DNA from: Acidobacteriota bacterium
GTDB taxonomy: Bacteria > Acidobacteriota > UBA6911 > JACQSX01
NCBI GenBank assembly: GCA_036507075.1
Contig: DASXQR010000015.1
Location: 1-12,459, forward strand
Length of the DNA stretch: 12,459 bases
Reading direction: 5' to 3'
The translations under genes were made by a program, and so were the position numbers. A model generated the notes under the pieces. The model made no database searches. It was not told the origin of the DNA and saw nothing but the letters and a program-made list of their open reading frames with translations. Positions 1 through 12,459 of the stretch are shown one piece after another (the first letter of the stretch is position 1; each line of letters starts with the position of its first letter).

Positions 1-160
<160 letters not shown>

Positions 161-3825: not shown

Positions 3826-3934
3826 GAAGATCCTGTCAGGTTTAGAAACTCAAGAGTTTACCATTCCGAATGGGAATTTCAAGAACTTTTTTCAGTGCCG
3901 GGTCGTGGTCTGGCAGTCGAGGAAAGACAGTCAA

Positions 3935-4005
3935 GGAGAGACGGCCTGAGGGCCGTCTCTCTGCGGTGTCCTGCCAAGCTGAGACGGCCCTCAGGCCGTC
4001 TCTCC
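3935..4005. repeat. Inverted pair of REP-like palindromes (REPIN/BIME-like doublet)
   Basis: 3935-3959 GGAGAGACGGCCTGAGGGCCGTCTC is the exact reverse complement of 3981-4005; each unit is itself a hairpin (GAGACGGCC-4 nt-GGCCGTCTC) with a 5' GGAG tetranucleotide; 21-nt spacer. Confidence 0.85.
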
Positions 4006-4051
4006 GCTCCCGAATAATTTGCGCAGGCCGCGAAAATTCTCATGGTTACTA

Positions 4052-4155
4052 GTACAGGATTGTTGGTTGTCCGTGGCTTATTGTCAGTTGTCACTACTGA
4101 CGACAGTATGCAATAACCACTGACAACGGGCCACAGACAACGGACAATCCTGTAC
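4052..4155. repeat. 104-bp imperfect palindrome built from 7-nt repeats
   Basis: Arms 4052-4091 and 4116-4155 complementary at 33/40; right arm reads ACTGACA-ACGGGCC-ACAGACA-ACGGACA; inner TACTG-ACGA-CAGTA mini-hairpin. Confidence 0.85.
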
Positions 4156-5544: not shown

Positions 5545-5591
5545 GCTTGGTGCCTTGGTGGTAAAAAAAATGAACCACAAAGGCACCAAGC
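5545..5591. repeat. Short 8-nt-period palindrome between waaA and lpxK
   Basis: GCTTGGTGCCTTGGTGGT (5545-5562) pairs with ACCACAAAGGCACCAAGC (5574-5591) at 17/18; the CCACAAAGGCACCAAG arm resembles CCACGAAGGCACGAAG in the rnpB insert. Confidence 0.75.
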
Positions 5592-10854: not shown

Positions 10855-11684
10855 GAATTCGAGCGATTCTGTTTTTGCTTCTCTTCACCTTTGCGGCCGT
10901 ACCGGTGGGAAAACCGGCGGCCCGGCCGGCTCCTTTTCAAGCGGCCGAAACCGCCGCCTACGAAGTGAAGTGGAAGGCCCCGGTGTTTTTCCTCCCGAGC
11001 CTGCATGCCGGGCTGATGACGCTGCAGGTGCACCGGCCAACCATGCACGAAGGCGGCGCGGCATTGCATTTCAGCGCGGTCGCGAAATCGGACGGGGTCT
11101 TCCCAAAGCTCGGCGGAATCGTCGTCGACGATTCTTTCGATTCGCTGGTTTCGGCTGACGGTTTCTGTTCGCGCCGCGTGGTGAAGGTCCAGAAAGAAGG
11201 AGACAGAAAGCGCGAGATCGTCCTGACATTCGATCCGGAAAACAAGACCACTCACGTGCTGGAAAAGGACATCTCCGTCGCTCCGCCGCGCGTCGTAAGG
11301 AATGAAACCATGCCGCTGCCCGGCTGCGCCGTCGACGTGTTGTCTGTTTTCTACGCCGCCCGCCGGTTCGACCTTGAAATCGGAAGGAGTTTTAACATGC
11401 TGATGAGCGACAATGGTTCCAGCCGCCCCATCACCATTACCGTCGAGAAGCGCGAAAGCATCGAAACCGGCGAAGGAAGGATCCCCGCTTTAAAGATCCG
11501 AACCGGCTCGGCAATGGGTTTGTTTTCCTCCGGCGGTACTTTTTCCATCTGGTACTCGGACGACGAGTTGCGACTCCCCGTGAAATTCGAAGCCAAAGTA
11601 AGCTTCGGCCGGGTCTTCGGCTGGCTCAAATCCTACAGCGGCCCCTCCGGCGCCAGCCTGAAGCGCGAGACCGCCGCACGGTAG
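10842..11684 (+). CDS. Exported beta-rich protein, DUF3108-like
   Basis: Basic then hydrophobic signal peptide; ETAAYEVKW, DVLSVFYAARR, VEKRESIETGEGRIPALKI, IWYSDDELRLPVKFEAKVSFG resemble DUF3108 from memory; overlaps the upstream gene by 13 nt. Confidence 0.72.
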   Translation: MGKLRIRAILFLLLFTFAAVPVGKPAARPAPFQAAETAAYEVKWKAPVFFLPSLHAGLMTLQVHRPTMHEGGAALHFSAVAKSDGVFPKLGGIVVDDSFDSLVSADGFCSRRVVKVQKEGDRKREIVLTFDPENKTTHVLEKDISVAPPRVVRNETMPLPGCAVDVLSVFYAARRFDLEIGRSFNMLMSDNGSSRPITITVEKRESIETGEGRIPALKIRTGSAMGLFSSGGTFSIWYSDDELRLPVKFEAKVSFGRVFGWLKSYSGPSGASLKRETAAR

Positions 11685-11713
11685 CGGGAGAGACCTGACG
11701 TCAGCAAATCCTG

Positions 11714-11719
11714 TATAAT
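11714..11719 (+). promoter_or_regulatory. -10 element (TATAAT) of the rnpB promoter
   Basis: Perfect TATAAT about 12 nt upstream of the P1 helix of rnpB; no consensus -35. Confidence 0.65.
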
Positions 11720-11731
11720 AGAGCCTCAGAT

Positions 11732-12379
11732 TCACCAGAGTGGAGTAGGTGATCGCCGTTCAAGTGGCAAGTTATCAGGGGCAAGAATTACCAGTTAGCG
11801 AAGTTTGCCACGAAGGCACGAAGACACGAAGTCAACGATTCAGTTAGAAGTTTACTTCTGCGGCAGACAGGATTGATTTAGGAGAAGTGCCACTTCAACG
11901 CGTAATCCAGTGCTTCGTGGCTTCGTGGCTTCGTGGCAAACGCCAACTGGTAATTCTTGCACCCTGTTACCTTGCCACTTGAACGGAGGAAAGTCCGAAC
12001 ACCACTGGGCTGTGCGCTTCGTAACGCGAAGGATCCGCGAGGATACGGAAAGTGCCACAGAAAATACACAACCAGGTGACAAGTTGGCAGCGGCAAGAAT
12101 TACCAGTTTCACTGGTAACTCATGCCCCTGATCACTTGTCACTTGGAAATGGTGAAAAGGTGCGGTAAGAGCGCACCGCTTTCTTCGTGAGAAGAAAGGC
12201 AGGGTAAACCCCGCACGGTGCAAGACCAAATAGGCATCGCTGGTCCGCTTCGGACCGCTCGCGCCCAGGAGCTCCGCAAGGAAGAAGATGCGGGTAGGTC
12301 GCTTGAGGGAGAAGGCAACTTCTCTCCCAGATGAATGATCACCCCAGACAGAATTCGGCTTACAGCCCCACTCTGGTGA
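11732..12379 (+). ncRNA. rnpB: RNase P RNA, bacterial class A, greatly enlarged
   Basis: P1 TCACCAGAGTGG (11732-11743)/CCACTCTGGTGA (12368-12379); P2 GGTGATC/GATCACC; GAGGAAAGTCC (11986-11996); GAAAGTGCCACAGAAAA; GGTGAAAAGGTGCGGTAAGAGCGCACC; GGTAAACCCC; GCAAGACCAAATAGG; ACAGAATTCGGCTTAC (12348-12363). Confidence 0.97.
11803..11941. mobile_element. MITE-like element with 29-bp TIRs of CACGAAG(N) 8-mers, inserted in rnpB P3
   Basis: GTTTGCCACGAAGGCACGAAGACACGAAG (11803-11831) versus CTTCGTGGCTTCGTGGCTTCGTGGCAAAC (11913-11941), 27/29 complementary; second copy at 12411. Mobility is inferred. Confidence 0.7.
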
Positions 12380-12410
12380 TTCTGTGATCCGTAGTCAGTT
12401 TGAACCACGT

Positions 12411-12459
12411 TTTGCCACGAAGGCACGAAGACACGAAGTCAACGATTCAGTTAGAAGTT
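12411..12459 (+). repeat. Second copy (truncated by the window end) of the rnpB P3 insert
   Basis: 49/49 identical to 11804-11852, including 21 nt of unique interior sequence beyond the TIR. Confidence 0.92.

Follow-up and report, generated by a model that had tools for sequence, protein, structure and literature searches.

Background

Repeats inside bacterial RNase P RNA are already known from cyanobacteria and from Rickettsia. In heterocyst-forming cyanobacteria, STRR heptamer repeats were reportedly found in the RNase P RNA by Vioque in 1997 (NAR 25:3471), lying in tandem in helix P12. In Rickettsia, palindromic elements (RPEs) are described in the M1 RNA and tmRNA genes (Ogata 2002, via PMC2229807). 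Prokaryotic RNase P RNAs are given as 250-550 nt long, with a mean of 374 nt for type A (PMC7191817). Among other stable RNAs, rRNA can carry intervening sequences (IVSs), which are described as 100-200-nt stems that stand in place of a tetraloop and are excised by RNase III (PMC8708148).

Here we describe an RNase P RNA gene, rnpB, from an uncultured soil Acidobacteriota bacterium (genome G000, completeness 95.7%). The window, that is the whole stretch of 12,459 nucleotides that was analysed, contains the last part of the rpsL-rpsG-fusA-tuf region and an LPS operon, with rnpB at its right end (gene names were read from translations). As with the STRRs, an RNase P RNA of type A has short-period genomic repeats inside a variable helix, but where the cyanobacterial repeats are said to be tandem heptamers in P12, we find paired inverted arms in both P3 and P12 and a second element nested between those of P3, in an RNA of ~650 nt; the arms of the outer repeat have a weak 7-nt period and occur as inverted pairs, those of the inner one have an 8-nt period, and the host is an acidobacterium. 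The likeness to RPEs is that a self-folding repeat (105-146 bp in the case of RPEs, and thought to be neutral there) sits inside an RNase P RNA gene, whereas RPEs, as PMC2229807 describes them, are frequently found in frame within protein genes and none of the 79 inner copies of G000 lies inside an open frame; here there are also two nested families and an older, family-wide layer. New, as measured against the open literature that was searched, are the two-layer P3, the outer layer fixed across a family in several helices, the measured nesting habit of the inner element and the presence of outer arms at the ends of stable RNAs.

Anatomy of the RNase P RNA

The gene encodes a type A RNase P RNA on the plus strand (11727-12384), as delimited by RF00010, by folding and by pair counts in four species. 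The RF00010 match (11925-12373) scores 248.4 bits against a gathering threshold of 100, but because of the insert in P3 it places the 5' end of rnpB about 200 nt too late. The true 5' strands, lying that far upstream of the Rfam start, are those of P1 (core 11735-11745, partner 12366-12376) and P2 (11748-11754, partner 12337-12343), together 11735-11754, which were placed by hand and are backed by pairing in three relatives (G001, G002 and G003); three P1 pairs are changed on both sides among the four species, while P2 is invariant. P1 can be extended to 11727 on its 5' side and 12384 on its 3' side and the RNA is thus 640-660 nt long, which bears out an estimate of about 650 nt made earlier from the letters of the window alone (the sequence-only reading).

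Assignment to type A follows from the score, the conserved regions and the P4 pseudoknot with its bulged U in the alignment to the model. The universal GAGGAAAGTCC (11986-11996) forms J3/4 and the 5' strand of P4 with the bulged U, its P4 partner being 12354-12361, and the region 12348-12384 holds ACAGAATTCGGCTTA, the 3' strand of P4, followed by the 3' strand of P1, supported by the Rfam alignment and by pair counts. Of the other type A helices, P6 and P18 were counted in the four species along with P1 and P2, P13/14 and P16/17 are seen in the Rfam alignment, and P19 is absent from the RNase P RNA of this Acidobacteriota family. P12 (12072-12146, 75 nt) is a second hairpin of the outer family, recognised by repeat search, by comparison with relatives and by pair counts, and it had gone unmentioned in the sequence-only reading. 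Just upstream of P1 a TATAAT box (11714-11719) is probably the -10 element of the rnpB promoter; the identical hexamer stands in the same place in G001-G003, but because a consensus promoter scan upstream of rnpB gave no full sigma-70 match its role is only inferred. Elsewhere in the window, other short-period intergenic palindromes lie at 2384-2630, 3932-4007, 4052-4155 and 5545-5591, one pair of them bracketing the gap between fusA and rpsG.

P3 is 231 nt long (11756-11986) and forms one hairpin. Inverted-repeat search finds the outer arms at 11756-11800 and 11941-11986, the left one also matching the profile of its family and having an orthologue in G001-G003, and between them a 139-bp non-coding element with CACGAAG arms (11803-11941), whose terminal inverted repeats (TIRs; 11803-11831 and 11913-11941) are 29 nt long, 93% complementary and 81 nt apart, around a core at 11832-11912. 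The folding energy of 11756-11986 is -133.7 kcal/mol (z -15.0), which none of 200 shuffles equalled. Of its 90 pairs, 69 are in the arms and TIRs, in runs of 16, 2, 5+16, 2, 13, 7 and 8, and the 81-nt loop region adds 21 weaker ones, so that both the coordinates and nested anatomy of P3 and the single stem of about 70 bp with an 81-nt loop region, as the sequence-only reading had drawn them, were confirmed. Its 7-nt period fared less well: autocorrelation of the outer arm at that spacing is weak (0.45), and the inner TIR has an 8-nt period (0.79 at 8, 0.15 at 7). Rfam searched at a relaxed threshold gave no known RNA family within the insert.

Misfolding by pairing between the related arms of P3 and P12, or with the element downstream of rnpB, was considered and rejected, since the native fold wins: P3 and P12 folded natively give -70.4 kcal/mol against -54.4 for cross-pairing, and the ensemble holds no cross pairs. 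As a point on the other side, P2 has only 3.3 expected pairs in the pseudoknot-free ensemble, computed on a span that was one base short.

Evidence for a working ribozyme

RF00010 has a single match in the 95.7% complete genome, making this rnpB the only copy found. The gene for the protein subunit, rnpA, is present (contig C83) and no protein-only RNase P (HARP, PF08745) was found in G000. Over P1, P2, the P3 base, P6, the P12 base and P18 in the four species, 98.3% of 236 cells are paired and 10 pairs are changed on both sides, whereas slid controls are 34-49% paired; these counts come from four related sequences and are modest evidence, and palindromic DNA can be co-corrected without selection on the RNA. 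The conserved regions are intact and P4 is perfectly paired in the alignment to RF00010, in keeping with the earlier claim of an intact catalytic core.

Could rnpB instead be a decaying pseudogene, inactivated by its insertions? What speaks for this is that P12 of G000 (12068-12150) is without the 3-bp basal stem that G001-G003 have, 4 nt being missing on each side. Against it stand the single copy, the presence of rnpA with no HARP found, the intact conserved regions with a perfectly paired P4 and the conserved TATAAT upstream, and we consider decay very improbable. Judged from these comparisons, rnpB of G000 looks functional.

Assembly support for the insert

Five sequencing runs of five studies contain parts of the stretch, none of them recorded as RNA; four were compared, all as assembled contigs. 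From study X3, record 17 (11558-11886; 2 differences, 1 gap; depth 3.3) begins in the upstream gene, crosses P1 and P2, then the outer arm and the TIR, and reaches the core proper to the inner copy of P3. From X1, record 6 (11804-12179; no differences; depth 11.9 against 9.6-14 for its neighbours) joins that inner core to the catalytic domain and P12. From X2 come pieces covering 11000-11833 and 11804-11937 (record 10). Among the joints listed, none skips the inner element. The junctions of the insert, for which a read check had been proposed, are therefore supported by contigs from three sequencing studies, with the caveats that no single listed piece spans the stretch, that X1 may be the source sample and that X1-X3 are all soil runs of 2020, possibly from one campaign.

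These pieces bear on the possibility that a multi-copy repeat was misplaced inside P3 by the assembler. In favour of such an artefact, the contig ends 470 nt downstream inside the identical 49-nt start of the same element, no single listed piece covers the whole stretch and the left-junction pieces of X1 and X2 extend just 31 letters into the shared TIR. On the other hand X3 record 17, X1 record 6 and X2 record 10 cover the junctions and the core, and relatives carry the same outer arms. An assembly artefact as the source of the P3 insert is largely refuted, and we give it hardly any weight.

The second inner-family element downstream of rnpB, whose start (12411-12459, plus strand) was found by repeat search, is cut by the contig end. 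Read-derived contigs reach 12440, and the last 19 bases (12441-12459) are an exact copy of the element in P3 and lie outside the listed read-derived pieces. The last 19 bases of the contig may be a mis-extension, a suspicion that arises because X1 record 6 is unbroken.

The outer arms are an old part of P3 and P12

The family has four assembled genes (G000-G003; four species in three genera), and each of them carries the same outer arm at the base of P3 and again at that of P12, with its pairing kept; in G003 the arm is found in P16 as well. Scans with family-level core patterns gave 3 loci in genome contigs and 0 in metagenome contigs. What lies between the arms differs: measured approximately between anchors, P3 is ~229, ~128, ~34 and ~133 nt long in G000 to G003, and P12, also between anchors, is 78, 87, 123 and 123 nt. 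In G005, of the same order, P3 is 18 nt and P12 17 nt long and rnpB has no outer arm, while the genome holds 93 matches to the arm pattern elsewhere. Six of the 137 genomes of the class have such matches (14 in G000, 20 in G001, 2 in G002, 6 in G003, the 93 in G005 and one stray); both of those in G002 lie in P12 with none elsewhere in that genome, and G004, which is 77% complete, has none. No outer arm was found in viral contigs (0 loci). Taken across these four genes, the outer arms appear as what we conclude they are, an old and fixed part of P3 and P12, not a recent passenger.

In the genome of G000, 56 of the 58 profile matches to the outer arm could be anchored. Eleven of the 56 have a tRNA end no more than 3 nt away, against 0.03 expected for random placement in non-coding DNA, and 10 of the 44 tRNAs are touched in this way. 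Ten arms adjoin start codons of real genes (11 were listed, and one antisense to a tRNA was dropped), among them a lone arm at 104-140 (plus strand) whose end adjoins the start codon of tuf, which runs on the minus strand from 103. Outer arms also stand at the 3' end of 23S, the 5' end of 5S and both ends of the SRP RNA. In relatives, arms lie within 7 nt of tRNA ends in 5 of 9 (G001), 1 of 8 (G003) and 1 of 10 (G005) cases examined, and the tRNA-His, -Arg, -Trp and SRP positions that are occupied by arms in G000 are likewise occupied in relatives.

Several of these places in G000 have features of their own. The SRP RNA (contig C222; L236:567-822) is a small core bracketed by outer-family arms, and because these extend its terminal helix the small RNA scores as Bacteria_large_SRP (102.8 bits, 256 nt). 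A second 5S-like copy on C167 (L235:510-627) has its first ~22 nt replaced by an outer arm and scores 52.8 bits, against 103.2 for the intact copy. On C209 (11706-11936) a convergent pair of outer arms bounds the entire 23S-5S spacer, and a tRNA-Trp on C213 (619-698) has arms on both sides, which would extend the acceptor stem in the precursor.

Such placement invites the idea that the outer arms have been domesticated, whether as stems that help to process or stabilise stable RNAs (tRNA, SRP RNA, the 23S-5S spacer, RNase P RNA) or for tertiary contacts, and that the long P3 and P12 are themselves under selection. The clustering at tRNA ends and at the 23S, 5S and SRP ends, the shared occupation of the tRNA-His, -Arg, -Trp and SRP positions and the persistence of arms in P12 of G002, which has no other pattern match, all agree with it. 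However, the cargo varies freely in both length and sequence, G005 keeps a short P3 and P12 despite its 93 matches elsewhere, and persistence is expected anyway once an arm has replaced the base of an essential helix. Moreover the arm end reads C(A/G)T and can therefore abut ATG and CCA by target preference alone. We consider domestication improbable.

The inner element nests in hairpin tips

The inner CACGAAG element, delimited by its copies across the genome, has 58 loci with matches of at least 100 bp in G000, of which the closest is 90% identical and the rest 70-84%. The median length of the 79 inner arm pairs is 131 bp; in a count of 82 arm pairs, the arms stand 80-139 bp apart in 79 and farther apart in 3. 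Alignment of the 58 copies reveals, between 11846 and 11896, two copies of a self-complementary core box, GAAGTGYCACTTC, the first degenerate (11846-11859) and the second intact (11884-11896), and 86 of the 104 matches to the box in the genome lie within 120 nt of a CACGAAG arm; these boxes are possible binding sites of a putative mobilising protein. In consensus form the inner core contains no open frame.

Full-length matches occur only in G000 among 61 genomes, 7 of which match at all, the others with just the arm. An inner arm was seen in viral contigs at one unrelated locus only.

Being short, non-coding, multi-copy and bounded by terminal inverted repeats, the inner element has the character of a MITE, and it resembles Correia/NEMIS, ERIC and RUP as these are described in PMC10969869 and PMC2229807 (non-coding, ~130-140 bp, TIRs, tens of dispersed copies, a stable hairpin). 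It differs from them in its arms of 8-nt tandem units, in its frequent nesting in palindrome centres and in that no target duplication or TA ends were seen, by a boundary test that is imperfect: a 3-bp repeat was found at 1 of 77 copies and a 4-bp repeat at 1 of 77, with the right boundary misplaced for part of the copies, and none is evident in the alignment or at the P3 site. No transposase matching the element was identified in this analysis.

Of 77 inner copies with flanks, 25 lie in the middle of a stem formed by those flanks; for random sites the figure is 0.54%, and for mismatched flank pairs 0.57%. When the commonest host family is dropped this becomes 12 of 61, the P3 copy being among the 12; about two thirds of the copies lie elsewhere than in a palindrome centre. 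The inner element thus has a general habit of landing in hairpin tips, which is no coincidence, and the nesting in P3 is explained without luck, because insertion at the centre of a palindrome automatically preserves the RNA helix.

Origin and history of the two layers

The sequence-only reading had proposed that two unrelated families were inserted successively and are tolerated because they fold on themselves. The families are distinct, they self-fold at a helix tip and their order is borne out, the outer arms being present in four species of three genera and the inner element only in G000, but "unrelated" was too strong, because each resembles an inverted-array cassette, of one and the same kind, that lacks its gene.

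G000 has 6 matches to GxxExxY (PF13366) and 9 to four-helix-bundle (PF05635) proteins. By BLAST, inverted short-period arrays flank 5 of the 6 GxxExxY loci and 4 of the 7 four-helix-bundle loci examined. The sixth GxxExxY locus is a remnant on C59; it has CACGAAG arms and is the sole gene found between such arms. In G001, G003 and G005 (32 loci examined of 37 fetched) inverted flanks were seen at 19 of 22 four-helix-bundle and 8 of 10 GxxExxY loci, one of them with arms close to the inner TIR. A gene-bearing copy with exact outer arms was not found, none of those 32 loci having them. The inner TIR has a stronger local similarity to one GxxExxY cassette (0 of 300 shuffles as good), and the outer arm a weak one to two cassette arrays picked by eye (1 and 12 of 300 shuffles as good). 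Both families probably derive from inverted-array cassettes with GxxExxY or four-helix-bundle genes, the case for the outer arm being weak. Upstream of many of these genes (L063, L067, L068, L069, L071, L072, L073) stands TTCG, then after ~17 nt CAGTTA(T/C)GT, in a promoter-like arrangement. Two other candidate carriers were set aside: a 418-bp arm pair in G005 encloses, after a complete hairpin, a short antitoxin-like ORF and not a mobiliser, and the small one of the three GIY-YIG genes in G000 has neither arm family on its flanks.

Our preferred reading, to which we give a probability of roughly 0.6, is that this type A RNase P RNA works and that the tips of its variable helices have served as landing pads for gene-less palindromic repeats, the extra RNA being a neutral appendage that is mostly uncut. 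To judge by its distribution, a pair of order-specific outer arms would first have replaced the tips of P3 and P12 in the ancestor of the family, and that of P16 in G003. Comparison of the species shows that the cargo between the arms then turned over lineage by lineage. Finally, as placement across the genome suggests, the 139-bp MITE-like element would have entered the P3 tip in the G000 species, bringing the stem to ~70 bp. Because each insert is a closed hairpin, P1, P2, the P3 base, P4 and the rest would fold as usual, and the arms would have become helices themselves. The cassettes in which a GxxExxY nuclease-fold or four-helix-bundle gene lies between inverted 7-9-mer arrays are most likely related to both families, which would be their non-autonomous kin, and the added RNA probably sticks out from the ribozyme.

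Is the P3 stem cut by RNase III?

The long stem could have another fate: RNase III may cut it (and perhaps P12) as it cuts an rRNA IVS, leaving a split ribozyme in which a 5' piece of ~45-75 nt is held by P1, P2 and the stump of P3 to a long 3' piece. G000 has an RNase III gene (rnc, C179), in whose translation the catalytic motifs are intact if the residues have the roles we assume for them. With its consecutive stems of 16, 21 and 13 bp, P3 is as long as an IVS stem that is cut by RNase III, which argues against a mostly uncut RNA; the stem from which the Coxiella IVS is reported to be excised is 28 bp long and contains one mismatch and one bulge (PMC4990558). There are further precedents in the accounts of rRNA IVSs (PMC8708148), of Neisseria Correia elements, which RNase III cuts at the TIRs (PMC10969869), and of E. 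coli RNase P RNA fragments that can reassemble into active complexes (PMC11143913).

The P3 insert is, as in the IVSs described in PMC4990558 and PMC8708148, a long stem-loop of similar size in place of the short helix tip of a stable RNA, and some IVSs carry a four-helix-bundle (S23p) gene, to which the cassettes with inverted arrays in G000 are related. The differences are that the host here is RNase P RNA with no gene inside, and that excision by RNase III, known for IVSs, is hypothetical here.

G000 itself has, at the tip of a helix in its 23S rRNA, an IVS-like hairpin of ~110 nt built from heptamers, which also favours cutting. This insert (C209; L234:2445-2560, minus strand) is made of inverted heptamer arrays and lies near model position 1870 (z -7.5). 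By E. coli numbering we take this to be helix 68, which is not among the usual IVS sites (helices 9, 25 and 45).

Other evidence points away from cutting. No report of a bacterial RNase P RNA fragmented by RNase III was found in the open literature searched, the STRR-bearing RNase P RNAs of Vioque are reportedly full length, and the retention of the P3 base in four species suggests that the base is not destroyed. The P3 base has the longest perfect run and adjoins the region that binds the protein subunit, so that cutting there could be harmful. On balance we think cutting of the P3 stem plausible but less likely than not. Slightly less likely again is a broader conjecture, that the family of G000 has a naturally fragmented RNase P ribozyme from which RNase III removes the tips of P3 and P12, with outer repeats steered to stable-RNA ends, helix tips and start codons by an undescribed mechanism linked to GxxExxY/four-helix-bundle cassettes and inner ones steered to hairpin centres. 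Searched for bacterial RNase P RNAs that are long or fragmented, and for heptamer-GxxExxY cassettes, the open literature outside subscription journals returned no description of either.

Long RNase P RNAs in the phylum

RF00010 matches over the cut-off were found in 187 genomes of the phylum, from which 106 loci were fetched, enriched for low-scoring or long matches, with 81 higher-scoring genomes outside the set; G015 (as a row) and G082 and G194 (in the tally), which are flagged as unpublished, are included and no conclusion depends on them. P3 could be measured in 102 of the 106 loci (L042, L043, L109 and L136 were not measurable), and automatic calls of a long P3 in L027, L128, L130, L142, L151 and L165 proved false on inspection by eye. 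The median P3 is ~22 nt and four exceed 100 nt (231, 184, 134 and 130). The unusual length of P3 in G000 thus stands, as it is the longest of the 102, but long RNase P RNAs as such recur in the phylum: 11 of the 106 loci exceed ~500 nt in total, and G003 is longer than G000 (~663 against 637 nt by the same measure).

In another family of the same class, P3 reaches 183 nt in the single-contig genome G047, where it consists of an unrelated repeat matched at least 42 times across the genome, while three measured congeners have P3 of 20-29 nt; G029 has a 220-nt P16/17 segment. These two single-contig genomes belong to one genus, and their ~160-nt rnpB inserts (L039 and L041, in P16/17 and P3) are absent from the measured congeners. 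In L117 and L120 (G091 and G117) the RNase P RNA is 570-585 nt long, and several of its helices, P3, P12 and P19 among them, bear AT-rich hairpins of short period, an independent repeat-driven expansion of the RNA.

Conclusions

The RNA of ~650 nt extends the published size range of prokaryotic RNase P RNA as given in PMC7191817 (250-550 nt), and annotation by covariance model clips such genes, the Rfam start here being 200 nt too late. The precise placement of arms at stable-RNA ends is a handle on the movement of poorly described heptamer-array cassettes, and rnpB of G000 is a cheap test case for bacteria running on a split RNase P RNA. For the family itself, the series of four species with fixed outer arms and changing cargo, together with an outgroup with short helices, illustrates how selfish repeats can give rise to the expansion segments of a ribozyme and become locked in afterwards.
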